Shown: positions 721 through 22,329 of the stretch, piece after piece
Position numbering within the stretch: position 1 is the stretch's first letter
How the letters are laid out: every line of letters starts with the position of its first letter
From: Candidatus Pacearchaeota archaeon
GTDB taxonomy: Archaea; Nanobdellota; Nanobdellia; Pacearchaeales; GW2011-AR1
Assembly (NCBI GenBank): GCA_017608405.1
Contig: JAFCFX010000001.1
Location: forward strand, 7,667-71,666
Length of the DNA stretch: 64,000 nt
Direction of reading: 5' to 3'
The notes under the pieces: model-generated
What the model was told of the DNA's origin: nothing
The model's database searches: none
The model's input: the letters and a program-made list of their open reading frames with translations, nothing else
Program-made: the position numbers and the translations under genes

Positions 721-825
721 ATGGTCCTGCCAAGAATCGGGCTCTGAATAAATTCAGGCCTAGCACTCAAATAAATTTAAGCACTAAACTAAAGTTCGAT
801 TTTTATATGGTCCTGCCAAGAATCG
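721..825 (-). repeat. 19-nt direct repeat of the tRNA-Val 3' end (721-739 and 807-825) bracketing a 67-nt two-hairpin module
   Basis: ATGGTCCTGCCAAGAATCG occurs twice (plus-strand coordinates). The second copy is the T-loop 3' part, T-stem 3' strand, acceptor 3' strand and discriminator of tRNA-Val. Between the copies are hairpins CTTAAAT/ATTTGAG and GGCCTGAA..TTCAGAGCC, written in tRNA orientation. The G.U pair exists only on the minus strand, which argues for a minus-strand transcript. Confidence 0.6.
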
Positions 826-919
826 AACTTGGGTTTCATCGAATCTGAAGTTATACTCTAAAGTTTATGATACTCATAACCTAGTCAGCGATGTGTCTTA
901 GCCATTGGACTACAGGACC
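808..919 (-). tRNA. tRNA-Val (anticodon GAC) with an intron of about 40 nt near the canonical 37/38 site
   Basis: Minus strand reads GGTCCTG-TA-GTCC-AATGGCTAA-GAC-A-CATCG-CTGACTA. After a 40-nt insert come CGATG, a T arm (CCAAG-TTCGATT-CTTGG), acceptor 3' strand CAGGACC and discriminator A. Acceptor strands are perfectly complementary and U33 is present. Anticodon identity is moderately sure. Confidence 0.7.
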
Positions 920-980
920 TTTAAAACAATTCTTAGACATCTCCCGAAATATTTAAATATAATGTTTTGTATGGTTTGTT

Positions 981-1486: not shown

Positions 1487-3303
1487 ATAAACAAGGACAG
1501 GTGACAGTCTTTATTATAATTGCAATTGTAATTGTTGCTGCAATTATTTTATTTTTCACACTTAGTAAACCAATAACTACTGATAAAATTCCTGCAAGCA
1601 TTGATCCTGTTTATACTACACTTTTGTCTTGTTTAGAAGAAGATACTTTGGTTGGAGTAAGTATCTTGCAAACTCAAGCAGGATATATTGATGTGCCTGA
1701 GTTTGAACCAGGTTCTTCATATATGCCTTTTTCATCTCAACTAGATTTTCTAGGAAATCCTGTGCCTTATTGGTATTATGTTTCAGGAAATAATATTCAG
1801 AAAGAACAAATTCCCTCTAAAGCAAATATGGAGCAGGAACTTGCTGATTTTGTCGAATCAGAAATAAATACCTGTATTTTTGATAAATATTATGAAGATG
1901 GTTTTGAAATAAGATTTGGAGAACCAGAAGCAAATGTAAAGATTAAGGATACTGAAATTGAGGTTGGATTGGATATGGATTTTAATGTCAATTTTGCAGA
2001 AGATAGTGCACGCGTTTCACAACACAATGTTGTAGTTGATTCAAGATTAGGTAAGCTTTATGATTCTGCTGTTGAAGTTTATGAAAAAGAACAGGAAGAA
2101 TTATTTTTAGAAGAATATGCTGTTGATACTTTGACACTCTATGCTCCTGTTGATGGTGTTGAGTTGAGTTGTTCTCCTGTGACCTGGGCAACAGAAGAAG
2201 TTTTTGATGAATTAGAAATAGCTATTGAGGCCAATACCCTTGCTTTAAAATCAAAAGGAAGTAATAAAGATTATTTTGTAGTTGATTTGGGGGTAGATGA
2301 AGATGTGAGGTTTATTAATTCAAGAAATTGGCCAAGAGGTTTTGAAGTTTCTCCTAGTGAAGGAAATATTTTGATTTCTTCTCCTGTGGGTAATCAAGCA
2401 GGATTGGGAATAATGGGCTTTTGTTATGTGCCATATCATTTTGTTTATAATGTGAGGTACCCTGTTCTAATTCAGATACAAGAGGGAGACGAGATTTTTC
2501 AATTTCCTGTTGCAATTGTTTTACAGGGTAATCAGCCAAGACAAGCTTTAGATGCGAGTGCTGTTGCTCTCGGAATCCCTGATTTATGTGAATATAAGAA
2601 CAATATTATGGAAATAGAAGTTTATGATACTAATGTCCGTCCTATTGATGCCCAAATTAGTTTTGAGTGTTCTGGAACAAAGTGTGATATTGGTGAAACA
2701 ACTTCTGGTTCTTTATCTGGAGAATTTCCACAGTGTGTTAATGGACAAGTTTTAGCAAGAGCAGAAGGATATGAAGATGGTAGAAAAGTGGTTTCTGAGA
2801 TAAATGGGGGAAGTGTAAGCTTGTTTTTAGAAAGGCTATATGATGTGGAGATTGAGTTAGAATTAGATGGAAGCGCTTATGGAAAAGACGCAATAATTAG
2901 TTTTATTTCTGAAGGCAAAGCAAGAACAATTGTTTATCCAGAGCAAACACAGGTTGAGTTGAGTGAAGGAGATTATGAAGTGCAGGTTCATATTTATGAT
3001 AGTTCTTCACTGAGAATTGATAAATCTGTTTCAAAGCAATGTGTTGAAGTTCCTAGGTCAGGACTTGGAGGCTTATTTGGATTAACAAAAGAAGAATGTT
3101 TTGAAGTAGAAATACCTGCCCAAGTTATTTCAAATGCATTAGCTGGAGGAGGAAAACAAGGTTATTACTTTGTGCAGTCTGAATTAAATTCAAGAGCAAT
3201 TGTAATTAATGCAGAAAGTTTGCCAGCTCCAAATTCTCTTGAACAATTGCAAGATAATTATTTATTATTTGAAGATAAATCTTTGGAGATTTCTTTTAAA
3301 TGA
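1471..3303 (+). CDS. Membrane-anchored extracellular protein (N-terminal TM, 610 aa), unknown function
   Basis: N-terminal hydrophobic helix (VTVFIIIAIVIVAAIILFF) is followed by about 570 aa of hydrophilic, Cys-containing sequence. Its stop overlaps the start of the giant downstream gene (ATGA). Confidence 0.6.
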   Translation: MVIKINKQGQVTVFIIIAIVIVAAIILFFTLSKPITTDKIPASIDPVYTTLLSCLEEDTLVGVSILQTQAGYIDVPEFEPGSSYMPFSSQLDFLGNPVPYWYYVSGNNIQKEQIPSKANMEQELADFVESEINTCIFDKYYEDGFEIRFGEPEANVKIKDTEIEVGLDMDFNVNFAEDSARVSQHNVVVDSRLGKLYDSAVEVYEKEQEELFLEEYAVDTLTLYAPVDGVELSCSPVTWATEEVFDELEIAIEANTLALKSKGSNKDYFVVDLGVDEDVRFINSRNWPRGFEVSPSEGNILISSPVGNQAGLGIMGFCYVPYHFVYNVRYPVLIQIQEGDEIFQFPVAIVLQGNQPRQALDASAVALGIPDLCEYKNNIMEIEVYDTNVRPIDAQISFECSGTKCDIGETTSGSLSGEFPQCVNGQVLARAEGYEDGRKVVSEINGGSVSLFLERLYDVEIELELDGSAYGKDAIISFISEGKARTIVYPEQTQVELSEGDYEVQVHIYDSSSLRIDKSVSKQCVEVPRSGLGGLFGLTKEECFEVEIPAQVISNALAGGGKQGYYFVQSELNSRAIVINAESLPAPNSLEQLQDNYLLFEDKSLEISFK

Positions 3304-6300
3304 AAATGAAAAAACAACTTATATTTGCAATGGTTTTGATAGTGGGGATTTTATTATTATCTTTTGTTTCTGCTTCAGCTTCACGTTCTATTTCTCAATA
3401 TATTTCTCCTGGCTTGTCTTCTGGTTTTTTTGGCCAAGCTTATGCTCCTATTGACAGGTCAATGTGTGAAGCAGGACAAGATTTTATTGTTCAAATTGCT
3501 CCGGGGGGGTGTACTCCTCCTGTGATTAGACAAGATTTATTAGAAGAACGAGATGTACCTATTACTTGTCAATTAGCTGCAACAAAAATTAATCCTTTGA
3601 TAGATGTTGAAGCAATTGATTATATTAGTTTTGGAACAAAATTTCCAAGAGGAGTTAAAGCAATGAATTTTTACCCTGCACAAGCTGCTTTAGGGGAAAT
3701 GAGAACTAGGTTAAATTCTCCTATTTTAAATAATATTGGTTATGTTGTGATAGTTTTAGAAAGACAACAAAATGCTTCTAAATTGCCTAATTGCGGACTT
3801 GATCCTATTACAAAAACAGAAGTATGCTGGGTTGAAGGCAATTTAACAGCAAATATTAGATATGATATTAAAAATGCTTTTGGTATTGGTCCAGTAAATT
3901 TCTATCTTCCTGAAATGAGTGATTCAGATTGGGAAGATCAGCATACGCAGTATAGTTTTTGGAATGGTAAAGGTTATTTAAGGGCAGAAGCAATTCAAGA
4001 GGATAGGGCTACAATTTCTCTTTATGATGGAGTTAGGGAAATTGATAGTGTTAGATTAGAAGAAGGACACACTTCTGAAAAAATCTATTTACCTGGATTT
4101 GATTGTTTGACTGCTTTAGAATTAGAATTAAAAGGTTTAGAAAATCCTGGAACAAGAGCTAGATTAGATATTAATGGCGAAGTTGTTGAGGTGGGAGATG
4201 GAGAGAGATTTTTAGAAAATAGGTGTAAGGTCACAGATCTTGAAGTCTTAGGACTTGTACAGACTGTTGAAGGCTATTGTGAAAGAGATAATGGCAAAAA
4301 AGAAGATTTTGTTTTTCCGATTAGTCCTAAAATTAAATTAAAAATTGGAAGTGGAGAGCCAAAAGAATACAGTGTTGGAGATTGGTTATATTCTTCAGGA
4401 GAGACTGCGGTTTATCTTGGTTATGCTGGGACTAGGGGCGACACAAGCAGAGAAGAAGATTTATATGTTTATCTTTTTTCAATACCAGAACATGAGAAAG
4501 AGGGTTTGGGTCATGATAAGTTAAAAGTTATTTCTGATGTTGTTTATAATATTGAATATAAAGATGTTACTGGTAATGCACTTACAAATTTTGTAGCTAA
4601 TATGGGTAAATTTTATATGGGAGTTACTCAACAATTTATGGCATATGTTACTAAAGGAGATAATTATGCTAGGATTGGTTATGGGCAAGATGAAAAGATT
4701 GGTGGGCAAGATGTGTTGGTTGTTGGTTTGGCTGGAGCAGAAGATAGAAGCTTTAATGAGCAGAATCTAGATTTTAGAGAATACTATACTAAAGCAATGC
4801 AAGATTATGATACTGTAATAAATAGTTTTGGAACAGAAGAATATTCTGAAGAAGAAATCGGTTTTGCAGAAAAAGCTTTGTTTGAGAAAATAGCATTTGC
4901 AAGTTCTACTCAGCAAAAAAGAGTAATGTTAGATTTTTGTGATGAATTTAATGAGCTATATCCTGATTCTAGATATGCAGAAAAAATAAAATCATATTGT
5001 GATAATGCTTTAAAGCTCGCAAGTCCTGAAGAACCAAGTGAAGATTTTTTAATTAATGGGAGAATGAAAACAATTTCTTTTGAAGGGATTTATGAACCTG
5101 ATGAAGAAGAATATAGTGCAGATATTAGAATTCAAGGTCCTAATGGGCAATCCCGGGTTTTTACATTTAGGCATAATGAACAAATTTATCTTGATTTATT
5201 TAGAGATAATGGAACACAGCATACAGGAGAGTTTATTCAGTTAATTGATTTAGATCTTGATTCAGCAGAGGTGCAGACGTCTTTTGTTTCTAATAAAAAT
5301 ACTGCTGGAAAGATTAGTGATTTTTTCTTTGCATCTAGTAAAAAAACATTAGAAAAAGGAGTTGTTCAGAGTATTGGGAGTGATTATGTTTTGACTCTGG
5401 AAAAAGTTAGGTTGAAAAAACAAGCATTTGTAAGGGTAAGGCCTGCAATTGATGATGCAGGCACAGAAGCTGATTTTAGATTTAAAATTGGAATAGAGAC
5501 TCGACTAATAAAATTATCTCCTGAAAAGACTAAAGAAAAAATAGAAAAAATAGAAAAAAGACTTGAAAAATGGGAGAAAATTTCTAGTACTCTTAACAAA
5601 GTTGTGAAGACTCTTAATACTGCTTGTTATGCAACTCAATTAGCTTTGACTTTAAAGAATCTTGTTACAGAAGGGATATTAAAGAGTGGAAAATCAATTG
5701 CAAGGCAAGAAGTTATGAGGTTAGAAGAGGGGTGGAATGATGAGTGTGGAAATTTAACAGGACCAGATAAACAATATAAAACAAACAGTGCCTGTTTACT
5801 CGGCGAGGCAAAAAAGATTAATGGTGATGTTGATGAACGTTTTGATGCTATGAAGAGTACTGAAGAGTATTTTAAGACAATGCAAGATGACCCTGAAATA
5901 AAAATAAAAGATTCTCTTTTTGGAGATACTGTTTATGATTCTGAAAAGCTTAAGAAAAAATTATTAGATAATAAATATGAAGAACAATTAACAGATGAAA
6001 TTAATTTTGATTCTGTTGAGATTAAGGGGGAGCAAATTCTTGTTTCAGATATTTTGAAAGGATTAAATTCTAGTTCAACTTCAATAGAGCAAATGAGGGA
6101 CATGAGGATGAATGCTGATCTTTTAGATTCAGATAGTGATGTTTTAAGAAGAATGAGTAAGGCACAATTAGAAAAAGATCTTGTAGAGATTTATCAAAAT
6201 ACTAATAAAGAAATAGAATATAAGAGTGTGCTTAATGATTTGCGTGGGAAAGAGGGGCTTAGTAATATTGATATTGCAGTGGCGAGAAGTGGAGATGTTG

Positions 6301-9300
6301 AAGAAATAATTTATGAGGGAGGAATTAAAGGTACAGGAGGTTTTGGAGATATGCCTGATGGTTCTCAAATAATGGGTCTTCAATTTGGAGGAACATGGTA
6401 TATTGTAGAGTTACAGACTATTAAAGTAAATGAATATTCTGTACTTAATGTTTACAGTTCTCAGACTGGGAAGAAAGAGGGAGATTCAGAGGATTTAGCT
6501 AAAGAGATGAATAAAAAATTTGCTTTTAGATCTTATGATTCATCTGCATATGAAAATCCTTATCTATCTTCTTCAGGAAAAACTTATCCTGTTGTAAGAT
6601 ATTTTGAAACAGAACCATATAAAGGATATCCTGCAATTGTTCCTTTTGATTTGAAAAAAGGATGGTATGCTCGTCTTACACAGACTATGCCTGTTTTTGG
6701 TAATCTTGCTCCTGTTGATGCATCTGGGAGGCCTACTAGTTTTTCTGTGTGTAATGTTTGGGAAGATGGGAAAGAAAATAATGGGAGGCCTGATGATAAA
6801 TGTACTTTGATTAATACAAATACAGGACAACCCTATGATCAAGTTTCTGGGCTTTCAAAAACCGAAGCAGAGAAATTGGTTCATGATGCTAGTGAAGCGA
6901 TTAAACAAGCTAGGAGCCAATACCCTGCAAAAGGTAGAATTGAAATTAATATTGGAGGAAGAGATAAATTTTATGTAAAAGTGGGTGAGCCTGCTGTTGA
7001 TGTTCCTGATTTGCAGTGTGAGGAGGTTATGTCTCCAAAAGAGTGTAATGTATTGTTTAATGTTTGTGATCCTGTTATTTGTCCTTCCAGTAGATGTAAT
7101 CTTGGAGGCAACTACCATGTTCAAGATGTTATTCAATCTGGAATAGTGGGTAGTGTTGCTTTATGTTTTCCTAATTGGGTTGTGCTTGGAGGAGATGTTT
7201 ATGTGCCTGTTTGTTTATCTGGAATTAATGCTGGAGTCAAAGCATGGATTACTGTTGAAAAATCACATAGAGATTGTTTGCAAGATAGTTTAGCAACAGG
7301 AGAAATGACTGGAATTTGTGATCAGGTTTATAGTATACACACATGTGAGTTTTTTTGGAAGCATGGAATTCCCTTAGCAAATTTGCTTATTCCTAAAGCT
7401 TTAGAATTAGCTACAGGACAAAAAGCTAAGGGAGGAGGAGAATATATGGGGATTTCACATGCTTGGGAAAATGCAGGAAAGTCATTTGATTATTTTACAC
7501 AATATTATGCTAAAAACTCATTTAAAGCATTTAAAGAAAGATCAACAGAAGAAGTGGGAGGAGAGTTTTGTAAGGTTGCTGTTTCAGGTGTTTATCCTTT
7601 TATGGGGGGAGATGCGTTTGATGCTTTGACAGATCCTAATACACCTTATATTTCTTATGCACGATTTGAAGAGATACCCCACACAACAGCCACAGTTCCT
7701 GCAATGTCCCAGTATAAAGTGTTTTATCATATTTATGCAGGTGAAAATTCTAGAGCTTATTATAAGGTTTATTTAAAGGGGGGAGCTGAAACCTCATTTT
7801 ATGAAGATTTAGGCATGGTTGTTGTTGCTGAAGGATATATTGATAAGGGAGATTATGCTACAGGTAGTCGTGATATTCTAGGGATTTCTGGGTATAAACA
7901 ATTATGTACCATGGTAAATGGAGATGAAAAATGTGGGTTTAAACAGGTTTCAACAGATTTTGCAGTTAATTATGTAACAGAATTATATATGAAAGAACAA
8001 ACAAGTAAAACAGATATTAAATCAGCAAAAGAATGTTATGCAGGAACTCCGAGTGCATATAGTTTAGCAAATCCTCTTAATTTGGCAGGTTTTGGAGGCC
8101 AAACAGTGGAGAATGTAAATGAAATAACAAATCCTGCAATTTATGATAGAGGGGTTATTAGGATTTGTTCTTCTGGAAATCCAGGAAAAGGAGATGACAT
8201 TTTTTGGAATGATCCAAATCAATCTAGATGGAAACCAGTTGGGGTTTGTGATGAGACTATGGATTGTTGGTTAGATACAGAAAGTGTTGAAAGAGTAATA
8301 AAAGCTACAGATTTAAAAGAAGATGTTTTGAAAAATCAAAATGAAAATTATCAACAGATTTTAGAAAATAGTGGTAATTATTTGAGTGAAACTGAATTTC
8401 AAGAAAAAATTAGTGAGATTAAAAAACAAGAAGATCCAAGCAATCAATTAAGCATGATAACACAAATTTTTGACAATGTTTTTAAGAATAATGATAAAGC
8501 TTATTTATATTATTTAAGGGGTGTTGCTTATGCTGCTTTGGCTCTTCAAAAATATGTAGTGAGTGTTCCTGAAAAAATTTTAGGAAAAGATAATGCTACA
8601 ACAGATTATTTAGAAGAAGTAAAAGTAATAGGAGAAAGAAATCCAAAATATCCTCTCTTTGAATTTCAAGATGGTAGAACAAAAGAGAATTTTTATTTTC
8701 AATATTCTGGAAGTGAATGGTGGTGGTCTCGTGTTAGAGACCATGAAGAATCTTGGTTTCCTGTGACTCTTGTCGAAGACCCTGGATTTACAGCTTTTTT
8801 AGATGAGAGGGGGATAAAATTACCTCCTAATCATGATCGAGAACAAATAGCAAAATTACAAGGTAAAGATTATGTTGGGGGGTTAAAAGAGTTGATTGCA
8901 CGGACAATTAGAAATGATGAACCAAAAGGGGTAATAGATTATGTTAATGTAGTTGGTATTGGGGGAGGAGCAACACTAGATACAGAAACTGTGAAGATGT
9001 CTTCTACTAAAATGTTTTATCTTGAGCAAGAAGAGATGCAAACCCCAACTGGTAAATATAAAGAGGTTTTAATTGATATTGTTGATTCAAGGTGGGCCTG
9101 GTCATTTGATATGGAAAATTGGGACTGGTCTTCTCCAACAGATACAAATAAAGTAAGTTCTGATATTATCTTATTATTTGAAATTTTAGAAAGAGATAAT
9201 CCTGTTTTTCTTGATGGTGCTAATCTTATATTTAGTATTGATGCTGAAACTCCTGTTATGGGGGAAGTGGAGGTTATTGGTAATGGGCAAGATATAACAG

Positions 9301-9734
9301 GGGATAAAATTTGGGAAAAAGCTAGTAAAATGGTTACTGATAAACATAATTCTCAAAGAGGAGAATATTTTGATAATGTTTGTGCAAGATTTGTTACAGA
9401 AGTTTTAACTGCTGCAAGGATAGGGGGTTTTGAAGCTCCTTCAGATGAAGATTTTTGCCCTTTAGATAGTGTTAATACTCTAGTAAATGAGTTAGAGAAA
9501 AGAGATGATTTTATTGAAATTCAAGATCCAACATCTTTTGAAAAAGGAGATGTTGTGGCATTTAAATGGTCTGTAGGGGGACAGCATATGACTATCTTTA
9601 ATCAATATGATTCAAGTAATATAAAACACTTATATGTTTTTGGAGAAGGTGGTGAAGATGATCCTGCAATTTTACAAGATTATGTATTAGGACCAGAGGC
9701 GAGTATTCTTGGGGCTTATAGATATGTTGGATAA
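3300..9734 (+). CDS. Giant secreted protein (2144 aa) with Cys-rich regions, coiled-coil segments and a C-terminal NlpC/P60-CHAP-like papain-fold hydrolase domain
   Basis: Uninterrupted 6.4-kb ORF. Signal peptide MKMKKQLIFAMVLIVGILLLSFVSASAS. The middle has coiled-coil (KEKIEKIEKRLEKWEK) and Cys-rich blocks (CDPVICPSSRCNLGG...). The last 150 aa or so contain a catalytic-type Cys (FDNVCARFVTEV) followed about 67 aa later by GDVVAFKWSVGGQHMTIF, the G-D-hydrophobic ... H-hydrophobic His motif of NlpC/P60-CHAP amidases and peptidases. Confidence 0.75.
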   Translation: MKMKKQLIFAMVLIVGILLLSFVSASASRSISQYISPGLSSGFFGQAYAPIDRSMCEAGQDFIVQIAPGGCTPPVIRQDLLEERDVPITCQLAATKINPLIDVEAIDYISFGTKFPRGVKAMNFYPAQAALGEMRTRLNSPILNNIGYVVIVLERQQNASKLPNCGLDPITKTEVCWVEGNLTANIRYDIKNAFGIGPVNFYLPEMSDSDWEDQHTQYSFWNGKGYLRAEAIQEDRATISLYDGVREIDSVRLEEGHTSEKIYLPGFDCLTALELELKGLENPGTRARLDINGEVVEVGDGERFLENRCKVTDLEVLGLVQTVEGYCERDNGKKEDFVFPISPKIKLKIGSGEPKEYSVGDWLYSSGETAVYLGYAGTRGDTSREEDLYVYLFSIPEHEKEGLGHDKLKVISDVVYNIEYKDVTGNALTNFVANMGKFYMGVTQQFMAYVTKGDNYARIGYGQDEKIGGQDVLVVGLAGAEDRSFNEQNLDFREYYTKAMQDYDTVINSFGTEEYSEEEIGFAEKALFEKIAFASSTQQKRVMLDFCDEFNELYPDSRYAEKIKSYCDNALKLASPEEPSEDFLINGRMKTISFEGIYEPDEEEYSADIRIQGPNGQSRVFTFRHNEQIYLDLFRDNGTQHTGEFIQLIDLDLDSAEVQTSFVSNKNTAGKISDFFFASSKKTLEKGVVQSIGSDYVLTLEKVRLKKQAFVRVRPAIDDAGTEADFRFKIGIETRLIKLSPEKTKEKIEKIEKRLEKWEKISSTLNKVVKTLNTACYATQLALTLKNLVTEGILKSGKSIARQEVMRLEEGWNDECGNLTGPDKQYKTNSACLLGEAKKINGDVDERFDAMKSTEEYFKTMQDDPEIKIKDSLFGDTVYDSEKLKKKLLDNKYEEQLTDEINFDSVEIKGEQILVSDILKGLNSSSTSIEQMRDMRMNADLLDSDSDVLRRMSKAQLEKDLVEIYQNTNKEIEYKSVLNDLRGKEGLSNIDIAVARSGDVEEIIYEGGIKGTGGFGDMPDGSQIMGLQFGGTWYIVELQTIKVNEYSVLNVYSSQTGKKEGDSEDLAKEMNKKFAFRSYDSSAYENPYLSSSGKTYPVVRYFETEPYKGYPAIVPFDLKKGWYARLTQTMPVFGNLAPVDASGRPTSFSVCNVWEDGKENNGRPDDKCTLINTNTGQPYDQVSGLSKTEAEKLVHDASEAIKQARSQYPAKGRIEINIGGRDKFYVKVGEPAVDVPDLQCEEVMSPKECNVLFNVCDPVICPSSRCNLGGNYHVQDVIQSGIVGSVALCFPNWVVLGGDVYVPVCLSGINAGVKAWITVEKSHRDCLQDSLATGEMTGICDQVYSIHTCEFFWKHGIPLANLLIPKALELATGQKAKGGGEYMGISHAWENAGKSFDYFTQYYAKNSFKAFKERSTEEVGGEFCKVAVSGVYPFMGGDAFDALTDPNTPYISYARFEEIPHTTATVPAMSQYKVFYHIYAGENSRAYYKVYLKGGAETSFYEDLGMVVVAEGYIDKGDYATGSRDILGISGYKQLCTMVNGDEKCGFKQVSTDFAVNYVTELYMKEQTSKTDIKSAKECYAGTPSAYSLANPLNLAGFGGQTVENVNEITNPAIYDRGVIRICSSGNPGKGDDIFWNDPNQSRWKPVGVCDETMDCWLDTESVERVIKATDLKEDVLKNQNENYQQILENSGNYLSETEFQEKISEIKKQEDPSNQLSMITQIFDNVFKNNDKAYLYYLRGVAYAALALQKYVVSVPEKILGKDNATTDYLEEVKVIGERNPKYPLFEFQDGRTKENFYFQYSGSEWWWSRVRDHEESWFPVTLVEDPGFTAFLDERGIKLPPNHDREQIAKLQGKDYVGGLKELIARTIRNDEPKGVIDYVNVVGIGGGATLDTETVKMSSTKMFYLEQEEMQTPTGKYKEVLIDIVDSRWAWSFDMENWDWSSPTDTNKVSSDIILLFEILERDNPVFLDGANLIFSIDAETPVMGEVEVIGNGQDITGDKIWEKASKMVTDKHNSQRGEYFDNVCARFVTEVLTAARIGGFEAPSDEDFCPLDSVNTLVNELEKRDDFIEIQDPTSFEKGDVVAFKWSVGGQHMTIFNQYDSSNIKHLYVFGEGGEDDPAILQDYVLGPEASILGAYRYVG

Positions 9735-13107: not shown

Positions 13108-13199
13108 GCCCCTGTAGCTCAGCCTGGATAGAGCGACTGCCTTCTATCTATTGAGGTGAAGAAAGCAGTAGGTCGCAGGTTCGAATCCTGTCGGGGGCA
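13108..13199 (+). tRNA. tRNA-Arg (anticodon UCU) with an intron of about 17 nt
   Basis: GCCCCTG-TA-GCTC-AGCCTGGATA-GAGC-G-ACTGC-CTTCTA, then an insert (TCTATTGAGGTGAAGAA) of about 17 nt, then GCAGT, AGGTC, GCAGG-TTCGAAT-CCTGT, CGGGGGC and discriminator A. Confidence 0.75.
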
Positions 13200-13261: not shown

Positions 13262-13399
13262 GCGGAGGTGGCACAACGGTACTGCAGTCGGTTGCAGCTG
13301 GGGGGCACCAAGGTTCCCCTTACGATAACCCCTCCTTTTTCGAAAGGAGAAGGAAAGGCAAAACCCGACTTTTCGTGGGTTCGACTCCCACCCTCCGCT
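13262..13399 (+). tRNA. tRNA-Cys (anticodon GCA) with a structured intron of about 68 nt; discriminator U73
   Basis: GCGGAGG-TG-GCAC-AACGGTA-CTGC-A-GTCGG-TTGCAG, then an intron of about 68 nt holding two hairpins, then CCGAC-TTTTC-GTGGG-TTCGACT-CCCAC-CCTCCGC-T. U73 is the expected Cys identity element. Spurious ORFs on both strands cover this RNA in the track. Confidence 0.7.
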
Positions 13400-14285: not shown

Positions 14286-17174
14286 ATGAGAAAGAGGGAG
14301 AGGATTGTTACTTATTTATTTATTGTAGTTTTACTTGGTTTTGCAATTGGTTTTTTATATGTAGCAGAGGTAAGACTTACTGGATTTGCTGTTTTTGGGG
14401 ATTCTGGAGTGGAAGTTGAAAAAGGAGCTTATTGGGATAAGTATGAAGATGCACAAGGGATTCAAAGACTAAAAATTCATAACACTCCTATTAATTATTA
14501 TGATGGAAATGATTATGTTAGTATTACTTATGGTTCTTGTGGGAGCAATTGTTTCAGAGATTGGAATGGATTAATCTATAGAGTAAGTACAGATCCTCAA
14601 AAAGCGTACATAAATTTATATGATTCTGAAGATAATTATATTTCTAGTTTTGGTTTTGGCATTACTGGACAGATTGGAGCAAATACTTATAAATATACTA
14701 CTTTGAATTTTACATGGACTTGGACCCAAGAAACTGTTGGAGAGGAATATATTTTTACAGGATCGAATAATCAAGCTAATTTTAATTGGACTCAAGAATT
14801 TCATTTTTATCCAAATCAATCAATGAAGATTAAAAATACAATTACAAATAATTTGGGAGTGAGTGTTGATAATACTGAATTTTGGTTTATTCAGACTATT
14901 GGATCAAATCAAGGTGTTTGGTTTAATGGAACTAAATATGATCAAGATGTATATAGGTCAGGAAATTTTGATGCGTTAATGTCAAATATTCAGTTTGAAG
15001 ATAATTATGTTTTTGATTATAGTGATTTGCTTGTTAATGGGTTTAATATTACTTCATTTTATTTAGGGGATGGAGAGGTTGTGGGGGTTGGAGGAACAAG
15101 ATTACTAGCAATTGGAATAACAAGGGGAAGCAGTGTATTTTCAGATGGAGTTGCTGTGGTTGTTGATCCTAGTGTAAAAGTAAGTGAGGGAGGGGATGAT
15201 GCATATGTGGCTTCTGGGAGTCCAAATCAAAATTTTGGAACAAATACAGGATTAGAAGTAAGAAGACAAAGTCCAACAAGAAGATCATATCTTATGTTTA
15301 ATATTTCTGAGATCCCTGTTAATCAAGTGATAGATGATGCAGAATTATGTTTGTATCTTTATGATGACGTGATTTCTGGGGCCACTACAATTTCAATAAA
15401 TCATGTTCACAATATTTCTTGGTGCGAGGGAAATGGAGGGAGTGATGGAAGCCCTGTTTGTGAAATAACTTGGAACAATCAACCTTGCGGAACAAATTTT
15501 GATAATTCTTCTTTATGTAATTTGACTTCAGAATCAAATATTACTAATGATGGAAATCAAGATAATACTTGGCAATGTTGGAATATTACTGCTTTGGTTT
15601 CTAAATCTTACTTGGATGGTAGCAATAAAACTGCAATGGTTTTGACTACAAATGATTCAGGGAGTGCAGATAAATTTAGATCAAAAGAATATAGTGATTC
15701 TGCTTTGTGGCCTTATATTAATGTTACTTATCATACTGCAAATATTGCCCCCTCTATAAGTCTTGTAGAGCCCCAGAACCTTGTGTATGGTTATAATGAA
15801 TCTTTATCTTTGAATTTTTCTGCTTTTGATATTGATGATAATTTAGATACTTGTTGGTATACAATTAATGCAGGGAGTGGGATTATTCTTGCAAATTGCA
15901 CTAATACTACTTTTGATGTTTCTGAAGAGGGAGTTTATAATTTGACAATTTATGTAAATGATACTTTTGGGGAGCAGGCAAGTGATAGTGTTAATTTTAA
16001 TATAGATTTAACAGGAGTAAGTATTTCTGTTTCAGAGCCTCAAGGAGACAAGACTTCTAGAACAGAAATTCCTTTGCAATATTCTGTGGTTGGGAATAAT
16101 TTAACTTGTTGGTATGAGGTAAGAACTTCAATTGGGGGAAGTGTCATTGATAATTTAACCCTTGTAAATTGTTCTGAGTCAAGTTTTGATGTTTCTTCAG
16201 ATGGAGATTATGTTTTGAGTTTATATGCAAATAATAGTTTTGGAACTTTTAATTTAACAAGTTCTAGTTTTAGTGTTTCAACTTCTTCAACTCCACCAGA
16301 TAATGGTGGGGGTAGCGGGGGGGGGAGTAGTAGTGGATCTTATACTTTAGCAACAGGACTCTTTATAGGCCCAGTACAGGATTTAATTATAGAGGCTGGA
16401 AAAACAAAGAAAATAAATGTAAATGTTAAAAATGAAAAGTTGGTTTTTTTACAAGACTGTAGGGTCGTAGGTGATGGAGATTATCCTGATTGGATTTCTC
16501 AAAGTGAAATTAAGGGCTTAGCTGCAGGAGAGTCTTATGATTTTATTTCTGATTTAACTATTCCTGAAGGTTTTGATTCAGGAATATATGGTTTGGGACT
16601 AAAGGTTGTTTGTGAAGGTGAAGAAAAAAATATTAGTTTTAATGTAGAGATTCTTGAAAAGAAATTTGATTTTCATTTAATTGATGTTGAGAGGTTTAGT
16701 GAAGATAAAATGAAAATAGTTTATTCTCTAGAAGAACTTGCAGGATTAGATCAGGAAATAGGAGTGGAATTTTTATTTTTTGATTTAGATGATGAGAAGC
16801 AAGCAGAGGTTAAAGAAAATAAGACAATCACCCCCAATTCAAATCAAGAATTCGAAGCCTTTGTTTCTATTGATCCTGATTTAAAAGGCGATTTAACTAT
16901 GTTAATTAATTTAAATTCAGAAGTTTATTCTTATTTTGTTCAAGAAAATATTGTTTTGGGCCCTTCAATTAGTGGTCTTGCTGTTTTAGCAGACAATGTT
17001 AATCTTAATAATATTTTTAGTATTGTCTTTGTTCTTCTTTTCTTGGTATTTGCTTTTTTTGTGATTAGAAAAATTAGGAGAGGCAAGGTAGGAGTTAAGA
17101 AAAAAAAATCAAGAAGAAAAAAATATGATTATGTAGTGCCTAAATATGTACTAATGGTCTTGTGTGGTGCCTAA
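14286..17174 (+). CDS. Large cell-surface protein (962 aa), N-glycosylation sequon-rich, tandem Ig-like repeats, C-terminal TM anchor with basic tail; S-layer-like
   Basis: N-terminal TM; more than 30 NxS/T sequons (e.g. NSSLCNLTSESNITNDG, NKTAMVLTTNDSG); two repeats of about 90 aa (CWYTINAG...FDVSEEGVYNLTIYVNDTFG / CWYEVRTS...FDVSSDGDYVLSLYANNSFG); GGGSGGGSSSGS linker; C-terminal hydrophobic segment plus IRKIRRGKVGVKKKKSRRKK. Confidence 0.65.
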   Translation: MRKRERIVTYLFIVVLLGFAIGFLYVAEVRLTGFAVFGDSGVEVEKGAYWDKYEDAQGIQRLKIHNTPINYYDGNDYVSITYGSCGSNCFRDWNGLIYRVSTDPQKAYINLYDSEDNYISSFGFGITGQIGANTYKYTTLNFTWTWTQETVGEEYIFTGSNNQANFNWTQEFHFYPNQSMKIKNTITNNLGVSVDNTEFWFIQTIGSNQGVWFNGTKYDQDVYRSGNFDALMSNIQFEDNYVFDYSDLLVNGFNITSFYLGDGEVVGVGGTRLLAIGITRGSSVFSDGVAVVVDPSVKVSEGGDDAYVASGSPNQNFGTNTGLEVRRQSPTRRSYLMFNISEIPVNQVIDDAELCLYLYDDVISGATTISINHVHNISWCEGNGGSDGSPVCEITWNNQPCGTNFDNSSLCNLTSESNITNDGNQDNTWQCWNITALVSKSYLDGSNKTAMVLTTNDSGSADKFRSKEYSDSALWPYINVTYHTANIAPSISLVEPQNLVYGYNESLSLNFSAFDIDDNLDTCWYTINAGSGIILANCTNTTFDVSEEGVYNLTIYVNDTFGEQASDSVNFNIDLTGVSISVSEPQGDKTSRTEIPLQYSVVGNNLTCWYEVRTSIGGSVIDNLTLVNCSESSFDVSSDGDYVLSLYANNSFGTFNLTSSSFSVSTSSTPPDNGGGSGGGSSSGSYTLATGLFIGPVQDLIIEAGKTKKINVNVKNEKLVFLQDCRVVGDGDYPDWISQSEIKGLAAGESYDFISDLTIPEGFDSGIYGLGLKVVCEGEEKNISFNVEILEKKFDFHLIDVERFSEDKMKIVYSLEELAGLDQEIGVEFLFFDLDDEKQAEVKENKTITPNSNQEFEAFVSIDPDLKGDLTMLINLNSEVYSYFVQENIVLGPSISGLAVLADNVNLNNIFSIVFVLLFLVFAFFVIRKIRRGKVGVKKKKSRRKKYDYVVPKYVLMVLCGA

Positions 17175-20045: not shown

Positions 20046-20147
20046 ATGTCTCTGAGGGGATTTTGGCTCAGAACAAGTTCTGGCCTGCGTTTTGATAAAT
20101 CAAAACACAAACCAAGGTTAAAATCATAATGTCTCTGAGGGGATTTT
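20046..20147 (-). repeat. 19-nt direct repeat of the tRNA-CAU 3' end (20046-20064 and 20129-20147) bracketing a 64-nt two-hairpin module
   Basis: ATGTCTCTGAGGGGATTTT occurs twice. Between the copies (tRNA orientation) are hairpins GTTTTGA/TCAAAAC and GGCCAGAA..TTCTGAGCC, the same architecture as the module downstream of tRNA-Val. Confidence 0.6.
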
Positions 20148-20259
20148 AACCCCCGACCTCTGCCTTTCTCAGTCAACACTGGAATCAAAGATTCCGTGAA
20201 TGTGTTTGAATAAATTCAAACCCATGAGAGCAGCGCTCTAAACCCTGAGCTACAGAGAC
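20130..20259 (-). tRNA. tRNA-Met or tRNA-Ile2 (anticodon CAU) with an intron of about 56 nt
   Basis: Minus strand reads GTCTCTG-TA-GCTC-AGGGTTTA-GAGC-G-CTGCT-CTCATG, then an intron of about 56 nt with two hairpins (GTTTGAAT/ATTCAAAC and GGAATC/GATTCC), then GGCAG-AGGTC-GGGGG-TTAAAAT-CCCCT-CAGAGAC-A. The anticodon stem lacks the GGG/CCC initiator signature, so this is an elongator Met or agmatidine-type Ile2. Confidence 0.7.
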
Positions 20260-21478: not shown

Positions 21479-21793
21479 TTAGAATAAAGAAGAAGATATT
21501 AGGGCTATTATGTTTAGAATTATTAATGAGTTTAGAATTTTAAGTGTTTTTACTCTTTTTTTTATGCTTTCATTTATGTTGTATTTGTTTGAAAAAGTTG
21601 TTTTAAATATGGGATTTGCAGCAAATAATGTTAGATTGGTTATTTTATGAGTGAACTTGGTAGGGTTTAATTCATGGTATAAGCTTGGAGATTTATTTTT
21701 GATATCGCTCATTATGCTATTCAAATATAGGTATCTAATTATTGCTAGAACCATTAAGGTAACTGCTAGTATTATTGTAAGGTAGAGATTCAT
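21479..21793 (-). CDS. Hypothetical membrane protein
   Basis: 104 aa, hydrophobic N- and C-terminal segments; 4-nt overlap with endA. Confidence 0.35.
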   Translation of the reverse strand: MNLYLTIILAVTLMVLAIIRYLYLNSIMSDIKNKSPSLYHELNPTKFTHKITNLTLFAANPIFKTTFSNKYNINESIKKRVKTLKILNSLIILNIIALISSSLF

Positions 21794-22329
21794 GGCCTAA
21801 CCCAACCTACCTCATAATAACTAACATCTCCTTCTTCATCAAGAATTGCTAGTAAAAGTTTCTTTTTTGTGGAATGTGCAACACGATTTTTTGCACTGAA
21901 TTCGTGCCAGGTCAATCTTTTTGATTCGTGATCTGCAAATACAATCCATTTTGCATGTATTTTTCCTGGTTTTTTTCCTTTGTCATAGACTCTGAAATCT
22001 GCTCCAAATTTTAAGGCTGTTTTTACAATATATCCTTTTTCTCTTAAATTTTTAAACACAGGATATTTTAATTGGATTCTTTTATCTATTCTTTTGAATT
22101 TGTTTAATAGTTCTTTTTTTTCAATTTTTTTGTTTCTCGAGTAGATTTCTATTTTGTTTTTTTCAACTAAGAATAAAGCTTCTGATAAGGTATATTGAAT
22201 TTTTTCCCCAATACGTTCCCCAAAGCAAGATTTTTTGCACAAATTATGAGCTTCACTAGTATTGCTGGATACAATCTGTCCAATAATGTGTGCTTGTATT
22301 TTTTCCATGTTTTGAATACGAGAGGACAA
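21790..22329 (-). CDS. endA: tRNA-splicing endonuclease (EndA), short homotetramer-type
   Basis: 179 aa. The C-terminal catalytic domain KTALKFGADFRVYDKGKKPGKIHAKWIVF carries the conserved G.DFRVY ... H.K motif. This is consistent with the four intron-bearing tRNAs in this window. Confidence 0.8.
   Translation of the reverse strand: MSSRIQNMEKIQAHIIGQIVSSNTSEAHNLCKKSCFGERIGEKIQYTLSEALFLVEKNKIEIYSRNKKIEKKELLNKFKRIDKRIQLKYPVFKNLREKGYIVKTALKFGADFRVYDKGKKPGKIHAKWIVFADHESKRLTWHEFSAKNRVAHSTKKKLLLAILDEEGDVSYYEVGWVRP

Follow-up and report, generated by a model that had tools for sequence, protein, structure and literature searches.

A 66-nt intron in tRNA-Cys(GCA) of a Pacearchaeota-like archaeon begins with a hairpin-plus-tail module recurring in tRNA introns of DPANN archaea

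RESULTS

The interrupted tRNA-Cys gene

The DNA analysed here, called the window throughout, is a stretch of 64 kb with a G+C content of 31.6%, and its source is a DPANN archaeon of Pacearchaeota-like affinity. Seven tRNA genes were detected in it with the Rfam tRNA model, four of which carry large inserts in the anticodon loop. One of these four is a tRNA-Cys(GCA) gene on the plus strand at 13262-13399, with the following parts.

13262..13297, plus strand: tRNA-Cys 5' exon (Rfam alignment, BHB scan, spliced-product call)
13298..13363, plus strand: tRNA-Cys intron, 66 nt, at the canonical position 37/38 (ARAGORN, strict hBHB scan, intronless orthologues)
13298..13335, plus strand: module copy, G-rich variant, CUGGGGGGCACC-AA-GGUUCCCCUUAC followed by GAUAACCCCUCC (covariance model R1, alignment)
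13299..13322, plus strand: hairpin 1 of the intron, U2-A25 of the intron (folds, pair counts across the module family)
13332..13349, plus strand: hairpin 2 of the intron, CUCCUUU-UUCG-AAAGGAG (fold)
13358..13364, plus strand: 3' strand of the central helix, GCAA, then the 3' bulge A-A-C (BHB scan, constrained fold)
13364..13399, plus strand: tRNA-Cys 3' exon (Rfam alignment, ARAGORN on the spliced RNA)

The gene matches RF00005 with 44.4 bits (gathering score 29) over model positions 1-71, and the alignment places an insert of about 69 nt within the anticodon loop. ARAGORN in intron mode returned tRNA-Cys(gca) with a 66-nt intron; run without this mode, it missed the gene. When spliced by hand, the product is 72 nt long, is called tRNA-Cys(GCA) by ARAGORN and has a normal cloverleaf with U73 (base 13399 = T). 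The tRNA identity and exon boundaries given in a preliminary description of this DNA are borne out by these results. That description had also named an outcome that would count against it, namely boundaries placed elsewhere or a different RNA such as SRP RNA; RF00005 covers 13262-13399 and no other Rfam family was found there. The overlapping ORFs (79 aa on the plus strand, 87 aa on the minus strand), which it had dismissed as artefacts, are absent from the gene calls of the source record.

The 5' exon holds the 5' strand of the acceptor, the D arm, the 5' strand of the anticodon stem and U32 U33 G34 C35 A36 G37, with UUGC at 13292-13295 forming the 5' strand of the central BHB helix. The 3' exon holds C38, the 3' strand of the anticodon stem, the variable loop, the T arm, the 3' strand of the acceptor and U73. 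Splice sites were set in three ways, from intronless orthologues, by a strict BHB scan and by a cloverleaf-constrained fold. Intronless tRNA-Cys orthologues (e.g. L004, L006) read ...UUGCAG|CCCGA... across the junction. The scan, which required a 4-bp helix with 3-nt bulges on both sides plus the anticodon stem, gave a single sensible solution, at 37/38, in which the outer helix is UCGG/CCGA, the central helix UUGC/GCAA, the 5' bulge AGC and the 3' bulge AAC; 3' cleavage is predicted between A13363 and C13364. The energy of the cloverleaf-constrained precursor fold is -53.9 kcal/mol, as compared with -54.7 kcal/mol for the free MFE structure.

Under the cloverleaf constraint the 5' bulge continues into a multiloop and no two-stranded inner helix h' forms, so that the precursor falls short of the strict hBHBh' structure. 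The 5' splice site instead lies in a short unpaired stretch (A36 G37 C1 U2) that leads directly into hairpin 1. As modelled, the intron is a relaxed BHB form at the canonical position. This position agrees with the preliminary description, while the length of about 68 nt given there is corrected to 66 nt (13298-13363). Nor is the intron "unusually long", as had been suggested, given that related module-bearing introns measure 57-198 nt and about 200 nt is reached in the clade.

Other interrupted tRNAs and the splicing endonuclease

The remaining interrupted tRNA genes of the window, and the gene for the splicing endonuclease, are listed below.

808..919, minus strand: tRNA-Val(GAC) with a 40-nt canonical intron at 843-882 (Rfam 51.8 bits, BHB scan)
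13108..13199, plus strand: tRNA-Arg(UCU) with a 17-nt canonical intron at 13147-13163 (Rfam 58.7 bits, BHB scan)
20130..20259, minus strand: tRNA(CAU) with a 57-nt canonical intron at 20166-20222 (Rfam 52.2 bits, BHB scan)
21790..22308, minus strand: endA, tRNA-splicing endonuclease, 172 aa from ATG (Pfam PF01974 and PF02778, PDB matches)

The BHB scan found a 4-bp central helix, 3-nt bulges and an anticodon stem in the Val, Arg, Cys and CAU tRNAs alike. The earlier count of four interrupted tRNAs among seven therefore stands, with introns of 40 (Val), 17 (Arg(UCU)), 66 (Cys) and 57 nt (CAU), all of the BHB type and all at the canonical position. The earlier report of an endA gene is likewise confirmed, through Pfam matches to the N-terminal and catalytic domains (E = 7e-28).

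The endA gene lies 8.4 kb from tRNA-Cys, and its product is an exact match to a 172-aa database protein encoded in groundwater DNA, with "Candidatus Pacearchaeota" as the closest relatives that bear a name. Tyr, His and Lys are present in the expected catalytic motifs, and the best PDB matches are archaeal EndA catalytic subunits. Residues 29-172 align with M. jannaschii 1a79 (α4) and the loop lengths are M. jannaschii-like, the protein being about equally similar to the M. jannaschii α4 enzyme and to the α subunit of the N. equitans heterotetramer. The homotetrameric type named in the preliminary description is a candidate assignment. In size and domain content (172 aa, PF02778 plus PF01974) it is as expected for the single catalytic subunit of an α4 enzyme. 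No second EndA-like ORF or paralogue was found within the 64-kb window, and a 104-aa ORF overlapping the endA stop was rejected as a β subunit, having no similarity to one. An α4-type EndA has been assigned to several DPANN lineages by Kaneta et al. (2018; PMC5829648), who also described a C-terminal "L3" insert in DPANN α4-type enzymes and linked it to a larger number of disrupted tRNA genes. Relaxed BHB motifs usually go with broad-specificity forms of EndA (PMC5829648). The Cys precursor lacks a clean 3-nt 5' bulge with a two-stranded h' to close it, and a strict M. jannaschii-like α4 enzyme might reject it.

Hairpins of the Cys intron

Both intron hairpins named in the preliminary description do fold, with energies of -10.4 and -6.3 kcal/mol. 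Hairpin 1 keeps 11 of the 12 pair positions of the module described below, and its base lies 1-2 nt beyond the 5' cleavage site. Because this base starts 1 nt past the site of cleavage, hairpin 1 would be able to replace the BHB inner helix h'. Hairpin 2, whose 5' arm is the module tail, has an alternative register of 9 bp at 13333-13354 with a GAAA loop. The thermodynamics alone are unexceptional (folding z = -0.85 for the intron region and -2.3 for the whole precursor), and the support for hairpin 1 comes instead from homology and compensatory changes.

The suggestion that the intron might host a C/D-box or similar small RNA did not hold up. The intron contains no box C (RUGAUGA), box D (CUGA), C', D' or ACA motif, also when one mismatch is allowed in C and C'; it has no k-turn signature, and up to E = 10 its only Rfam match is tRNA, with no hit to a snoRNA or sRNA family. 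A C/D-box guide RNA is rejected on the absence of boxes and of Rfam matches, and an H/ACA guide RNA on the absence of ACA and on the continuous 12-bp stem of hairpin 1, which has no pseudouridylation pocket.

A conserved hairpin-plus-tail module

The 5' ends of the Cys introns of the window and of three related loci (L018, L020 and L007) have a hairpin in common, which is followed by CUUACGA(Y)A...CUCC. For a metagenome scan, the hairpin and the start of the tail were reverse-complemented and used as the query pattern, and 110 stretches were returned. About 20 of these are G+C-rich, bacterial and apparently unrelated; the others have GUAAAAAGAACC-nn(n)-GGUUCUUCUUACGACAUCUCC in common. The module comprises a 12-bp hairpin and a single-stranded tail, ACGAYA..CUCC, with GUAAAAAGAACC-nn(n)-GGUUCUUCUUACGACAUCUCC as its main form, and the first 38 nt of the window Cys intron are a G-rich variant of it. 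R1, a covariance model of the module with 12 bp, scores the Cys copy at 41 bits (E = 4e-7).

Relative to the family, the Cys copy has exchanged two A-U pairs for G-C, an A.C mismatch for G-C and two A-U pairs for G.U, and has lost one pair. The A-U to G-C exchanges are compensatory double changes at pairs 6:22 and 7:21, and the repaired A.C mismatch is at 5:23. Further compensated variants of the hairpin were found in L098 (AAGGAC/GUCCUU) and L047. Judged from the compensatory changes and the L098 variant, the proposal that the module hairpin is under selection reads as supported. The window copy is closer to tRNA-Ser(GGA) introns than to the Cys introns of its relatives, nucleotides 10-41 of the Cys intron being identical at 31 of 32 positions to the Ser(GGA) introns of L108 and L119.

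A second hairpin of at least 5 bp that makes use of the tail is found in 23 of 71 family copies, where shuffled sequences would give an expectation of 3.6, and the CUCCUUU-UUCG-AAAGGAG of the Cys intron is one example. Orthologous tRNAs compared across organisms show a mean pairwise identity of 0.76-0.88 in the exons, 0.83-0.96 in the module and 0.37-0.62 in the remaining intron sequence, figures that are inflated because the search pattern fixes or restricts about 24 of 35 positions. Outside the constraints of the pattern, G1-A3, an 8-nt stretch of the tail and the choice of A or U at the R and Y positions are near-invariant.

At E <= 0.5, Rfam searches of 14 module-bearing loci returned nothing but tRNA, SRP RNA and RNase P RNA, and no description of the module was found in Rfam or in the searchable literature. 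The module is apparently an undescribed, conserved, intron-associated element of DPANN archaea.

Genomic settings of the module

In total, 78 distinct copies of the module were collected. Thirty-two of them lie in tRNA introns, every one in the sense orientation, and the hosts amount to 11-12 isoacceptors (Cys, Ser-GGA, Ser-GCU, Lys-UUU, Lys-CUU, Gly-GCC, Asp-GUC, Glu-UUC, Trp, Tyr and Arg-UCU, plus a Leu variant). All module introns found are at the canonical position, and a strict hBHB is present in all tRNA-intron copies tested, with the intron starting 0-4 nt ahead of the module. At an offset of 0-1 nt (e.g. the window Cys) the hairpin itself abuts the 5' bulge, and at 2-4 nt (Asp and Tyr introns, and part of the Glu and Lys introns) the module lies within a normal two-stranded h' helix. 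The same strict hBHB scan found no motif in the non-tRNA copies (intergenic, SRP RNA and RNase P), and the idea that the module is always an intron was dropped on this difference.

The clearest pair of similar introns is found in L007, where adjacent tRNA-Arg(UCU) and tRNA-Cys genes carry 104-nt introns that are identical at 98 of 106 aligned positions. Most of the differences are found in the hairpin loop and among the 4 nt complementary to the anticodon loop, where GAAG pairs with CUUC in Arg and GUAG with CUGC in Cys. Parts of the module are tandemly duplicated within the introns of L027, L087, L095 and L128, partial tRNA copies are fused to modules or lie beside them in L007, L037, L047, L087 and L098, and some module copies follow duplicated tRNA 3' ends.

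Outside introns, the module was found inside an archaeal RNase P RNA (P7/P8 region), directly 3' of an SRP RNA, in a 16S-tRNAAla-23S spacer and, in L023, in antisense 2 nt upstream of a tRNA. Beside protein genes, which are unrelated housekeeping genes, there are 11 sense copies, in which the left end of the hairpin overlaps the stop codon of a co-directional gene, and 10 antisense copies, in which a divergent gene has its ATG 0-3 nt from the left end.

Copies per genome appear to be few; a 565-kb contig and a 27-kb contig each contain two exact copies. R1 found one good copy in the 64-kb window, that of the Cys intron, and 6-7 copies in 380 kb of unbiased related loci, all of them beside tRNA-Cys or tRNA-Arg. 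One weak additional match was obtained in the window.

930..944, plus strand: possible partial second copy of the module, UUCUUA-GACAUCUCC, matching at 15 of 16 positions with one deletion (R1 13 bits, E = 1.6; weak)

Antisense to tRNA-Val, this stretch is found some 10 nt upstream of the tRNA-Val 5' end. Across the copies we saw no target-site duplications and no terminal repeats beyond the hairpin, and the only flanking duplications were occasional tRNA fragments.

Presence and absence among relatives

Gene order around tRNA-Cys is conserved in relatives. The adjacent 263-aa ORF is fast-evolving, its best homologues being 55-59% identical; an alignment of 41 homologues led to 19 loci from species-representative genomes, all of them DPANN MAGs labelled Pacearchaeota, Woesearchaeota or Nanoarchaeota. 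A scan of genome contigs with the 263-aa neighbour protein alone gave no matches. Among the tRNA-Cys genes of the syntenic and related loci (n=19, L002 counted), 13 are intronless and 6 interrupted. Four of the six interrupted genes carry the module, such that this unbiased set divides into two main-form modules, two variants and two unrelated inserts.

In L002, whose EndA is 83% identical to that of the window, tRNA-Cys and tRNA(CAU) are both intronless, and the tRNA(CAU) orthologue of L003 lacks an intron as well. The 13 to 6 split and the absence of both introns from L002 point to fast intron turnover at the Cys and CAU loci, and comparison of these sequences suggests that the Cys intron is recent or unstable. 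The preliminary description had missed both the membership of the Cys intron in a widespread, sequence-conserved module family and the lack of an intron in most relatives.

DISCUSSION

A proposed spliced intron on a duplicating cassette

The results above firmly establish a tRNA-Cys gene whose relaxed BHB intron, at the canonical position, is a member of a recurrent module family. We consider it likely, from the comparisons above, that the tRNA-Cys locus is a functional gene split between G37 and C38 by this 66-nt BHB intron, and that the intron is an ordinary spliced one built on a duplicating cassette. The precursor can pair the anticodon stem and a 4-bp helix, formed by U32-C35 with GCAA at the intron 3' end, leaving the 3-nt 3' bulge AAC. 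The EndA encoded at 21790-22308 would cut both splice sites and an RtcB-type ligase would join the tRNA-Cys exons. Hairpin 1, set against the 5' bulge, may substitute for the inner helix h', and the module tail would usually pair downstream to give the second hairpin. Module introns may be gained, lost and copied between tRNA genes as a recombining cassette, after which only the last few intron bases would be re-tailored to the anticodon loop of each host.

This proposal draws on the twin introns of L007, the sharing of sequence between Cys and Ser introns, the presence and absence of introns among relatives, the tandem duplications and the tRNA fragments fused to modules. Near-identical introns in different isoacceptors, together with presence and absence among close relatives, are the features expected of a transposed intron family. 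If module introns do behave as cassettes, the window Cys copy would be a fairly recent acquisition or replacement. Against the cassette stand the apparently low copy number and the lack of target-site duplications and of terminal repeats beyond the hairpin, in both of which it is unlike a classical mobile repeat. Substitution for h' is also too narrow a role for the module as a whole, to judge from its offset in the introns of Asp and Tyr and in part of those of Glu and Lys, the conserved tail and the copies without a BHB.

Alternative explanations

An intron on a duplicating cassette leaves the conservation of stem and tail and the non-intron copies unexplained, and two alternatives were therefore kept. 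In one, which we hold to be possible rather than probable, the module is a functional RNA element of Pacearchaeota-like DPANN archaea that is recognised in trans by a conserved protein or RNA. Its main carriers would be tRNA introns, which would release stable, probably circular small RNAs, the excised Cys intron among them, and it would also be built into RNase P RNA and placed at SRP RNA, at the tRNA of the rRNA spacer and at mRNA ends. The positions of these extra copies (in RNase P RNA, against the SRP RNA 3' end and in the rRNA spacer) agree with such a role, as do the low copy number per genome combined with wide environmental spread and the high expression of the neighbouring housekeeping genes. 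Between orthologous tRNAs, conservation is higher in the module than in the exons, with the hairpin loop and the rest of the intron varying freely, and the positions outside the pattern constraints (G1-A3, the 8-nt tail stretch, the A/U choices) are nearly invariant, although these conservation estimates suffer from ascertainment bias. In a concrete version, the tail would pair with leaders of housekeeping genes and could compete for Shine-Dalgarno-like sequences, because it is exactly complementary to GGAGAUGUCGU, located 25-36 nt upstream of the start codons of genes with an antisense module, and because its main form, CAUCUCC, and its window Cys form, CCCCUCC, are each one base off the 16S 3' end CACCUCC. 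The 16S 3' end of L087, GGAUCACCUCCU, fits this version, but the likeness between 16S and tail is short and was noticed post hoc. The Cys and CAU introns also come and go between close relatives, which would not be expected of an essential motif, the orientation beside protein genes is close to 50:50 (10 antisense, 11 sense), and this analysis identified no partner for the element.

In the other alternative, the module is a selfish palindromic DNA repeat of the REP/MITE kind, moved into any tolerated site by a transposase specific for hairpin DNA. The use of both orientations beside protein genes, with the left end against a start codon or supplying the stop (TA|G or G|TAA), agrees with this. 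With bacterial REP/REPIN and archaeal MITE-type repeats the module shares the form of a short near-perfect palindrome and a place between genes, right after stop codons and in either orientation. The module hairpin is an almost perfect DNA palindrome (GTAARAAGAACC-nn-GGTTCTTYTTAC on both strands), and the tandem module parts in the introns of L027, L087, L095 and L128, the adjoining tRNA fragments and the patchy distribution among relatives would all follow. The exclusively sense orientation in tRNAs could be explained in the same way, since only spliceable inserts would survive there. We nevertheless regard this origin as unlikely. To be spliceable, an insert must have a 3' end that complements the anticodon loop of its host, a match that DNA inserted at random would not supply, and the G.U pairs on the sense strand of the window variant become A.C mismatches on the other strand. 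The module differs from the known repeats in its low copy number and its strictly sense orientation in structured RNA genes; no terminal repeats, target duplications or second conserved end were seen, and an unsystematic look noticed no transposase gene beside any copy. It thus lacks the many copies per genome, terminal inverted repeats and target-site duplications expected of a REP/MITE-like repeat. It is, finally, highly improbable that the Cys intron is just a lineage-specific BHB intron with incidental hairpins, whose likeness to others reflects shared tRNA-Cys ancestry alone. Its 3' end (AAAGGCAAAA) does resemble that of other Cys introns (AAACGCAAAA) and its folding energy is unexceptional, but the module is also present in 11-12 other isoacceptors and in non-tRNA contexts, the nearest match of the window copy is a Ser(GGA) intron, and R1 recognises this copy at E = 4e-7. 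On these three counts that explanation is contradicted.

Comparison with known systems

A spliced intron built on a duplicating cassette, the reading we favour, has partial counterparts elsewhere. With canonical archaeal BHB introns, which are inserted at 37/38, cut by EndA and joined by RtcB, the Cys intron shares its position, the 4-bp central helix, the 3-nt 3' bulge, the anticodon stem and the presence of an EndA gene in the genome. It differs at the 5' bulge, which leads into a three-way junction, with a local hairpin in place of the two-stranded inner helix. Near-identical introns in different isoacceptors have been described as "intron transposition" in the Thermoproteales (Fujishima et al. 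2010, as summarised in PMC4090602). As far as that summary goes, the module introns resemble these families in being near-identical across isoacceptors and in their rapid gain and loss among relatives. Unlike them, they belong to DPANN archaea and are all at the canonical position; only the 35-38-nt 5' module is shared across genomes, with the remainder diverging, and the module also occurs outside introns, in RNase P RNA, at an SRP RNA flank, in an rRNA spacer and at gene boundaries.

In Euryarchaeota, a C/D-box guide RNA lies within the tRNA-Trp intron (Clouet d'Orval 2001 and Omer 2000, as cited in PMC12558985). From what is cited there, that intron is like the Cys intron long and structured, with a conserved internal element and an excised form that is likely circularised, but boxes C, D, C' and D' and a k-turn are absent from the Cys intron, and the module has many hosts rather than Trp alone. 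An integrating mobile element has disrupted tRNA genes in Caldiarchaeum subterraneum (Sugahara et al. 2012, PMC3293823). Stray 5' and 3' tRNA fragments similarly lie near intron-bearing tRNA genes in L007, L037, L047, L087 and L098 and suggest recombination at tRNA genes, although here no recombinase-encoding element lies between the fragments and the inserts measure only 43-103 nt.

Significance

The origin and spread of archaeal tRNA introns is a long-standing question. To our knowledge, the copying of introns from one tRNA gene to another is well documented in the Thermoproteales alone, and the module introns would constitute a second, independent case, in DPANN archaea. The signature of this case would be a conserved 5' module, 3' ends adapted to the individual anticodon loops, near-identical introns in neighbouring genes, fused tRNA fragments and extra-intronic copies, and the family offers material with which DNA-level and RNA-level models of intron gain can be tested. 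Should the module instead prove to be a functional RNA motif, it would represent a new RNA family absent from Rfam, and archaeal tRNA introns would be carriers of regulatory RNA. The locus itself is ordinary as a tRNA gene and a good entry point to the module family; it also allows a hairpin-closed relaxed BHB to be tested as a substrate of the short DPANN EndA.

Several other readings of the module were tried and dropped. An autoregulatory leader of one RNA-binding protein does not suit the genes behind the antisense modules, which are unrelated housekeeping genes. The geometry of a tRNA-like 12-bp minihelix, cut at its base by RNase P or tRNase Z, is attractive, but stop codons intervene in 11 cases, and as the stop of the upstream gene lies in or overlaps the first hairpin bases in these, cleavage would give non-stop mRNAs. 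Sequence inspection for an archaeal promoter found no suitably spaced TATA-like box, and promoter elements would not lie where the module is conserved. Regarding a link to IS200/IS605 omega-RNA, the literature consulted on omega-RNA held nothing relevant. A mimic of 16S rRNA helix 45 plus tail was also considered, but the likeness to GUCGUAACAAGG weakens when set against the real 16S 3' end of the clade. From that comparison, the short anti-SD-like tail was left as the only lead.

Module copies at structural RNA genes

Among loci from related archaeal genomes and metagenomes, the module is found at or within the genes for SRP RNA (L026), RNase P RNA (L066) and rRNA (L087).

L026, 1111-1370 and 1078-1112, both minus strand: archaeal SRP RNA and module
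L066, 1685-2041, minus strand: archaeal RNase P RNA, scored by Rfam at 67.8 bits (E = 8.5e-19), under the gathering score
L066, 1882-1917, sense to the RNase P RNA: module, directly after AGGAAGGUCCGCACAC
L087, 3791-9543, minus strand: rRNA operon in which 16S and tRNA-Ala are followed by the module, with its 47-nt tandem repeats, and then by 23S

The SRP RNA ends in ...GAGUCUAC, and the module begins with the next base. In the RNase P RNA, the module occupies the expected P7/P8 place of the archaeal molecule; no BHB can be drawn around it, and it may either expand the structure or be an intron of non-canonical type. Within the rRNA operon, the module comes after a second copy, 10-12 nt long, of the tRNA-Ala 3' end. 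Rfam also places a group I intron in the 23S gene of this operon, at 76 bits.

tRNA-end fragments and partial copies

Pieces of tRNA ends also accompany modules elsewhere, and the window carries a partial module match beside tRNA-Val.

L007, 10850-10935; L037, 12090-12110; L047, 895-1045; L098, 2975-3050: partial tRNA-end copies near modules
Window, 930-944, plus strand: partial module-tail match TTCTTAGACATCTCC, adjoining tRNA-Val (808-919, minus strand)

In the four related loci, 10-24-nt pieces of tRNA 5' or 3' ends adjoin or are fused to module copies and are found near an intact intron-bearing tRNA, which suggests recombination or integration at these tRNA genes. Compared with the main-form tail, the window match has one deletion and agrees at 15 of 16 positions; it lies about 10 nt upstream of the tRNA-Val 5' end in antisense orientation, a geometry shared with L023, where a full antisense module lies 2 nt upstream of a tRNA. 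The module covariance model gives it only 13 bits (E = 1.6).

Other introns of tRNA-Cys and tRNA-Arg

Two tRNA-Cys genes have apparent double inserts.

L010, 1504-1628, and L012, 10397-10549, both minus strand: tRNA-Cys

Each seems to be interrupted at the non-canonical anticodon-stem position 30/31 and at 37/38. The module is absent from both inserts of each gene, and a strict BHB scan of these inserts found no motifs. The 17-nt intron of the window tRNA-Arg-UCU (13147-13163) ends in GAGGUGAAGAA. A similar sequence, GUGAGAAAAGAAGAA, closes the Arg intron of L007, which is 104 nt long and carries the module. The short intron may be an internally deleted derivative.

Other recurrent elements and flanking ORFs

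A second conserved hairpin element recurs downstream of the module, in the L007 introns, in L026 (1030-1075, after the SRP RNA and module) and in L032, L039, L041, L043, L088 and L100. Its stem, GCGAUUyy/rrAAUCGC, shows compensatory changes, its 13-16-nt loop includes AAUUGCCUCCGAC, and UUUCGACGCUGAA often precedes it; comparison of the element with Rfam, up to E = 0.5, yielded nothing. In a number of introns and intergenic copies, tail plus hairpin is repeated in tandem as 33-47-nt units (L095, 2463-2731, minus strand; L048/L067; L128), which bring the L095 tRNA-Trp intron to 198 nt. A further short element, AGAACC-nnn-GGTTCGACGAG-nnATyTCGTGG, is shared by the tRNA 3' flanks downstream of tRNA-Cys in L020/L053 and at 940-985 in L047.

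The tRNA cluster of the window is itself flanked by very large ORFs.

Window, 3300-9734, plus strand: ORF of 2144 aa
Window, 14286-17174, plus strand: ORF of 962 aa

Both look typical of DPANN surface proteins, and the 962-aa ORF contains a CBM96/disaggregatase-like domain.
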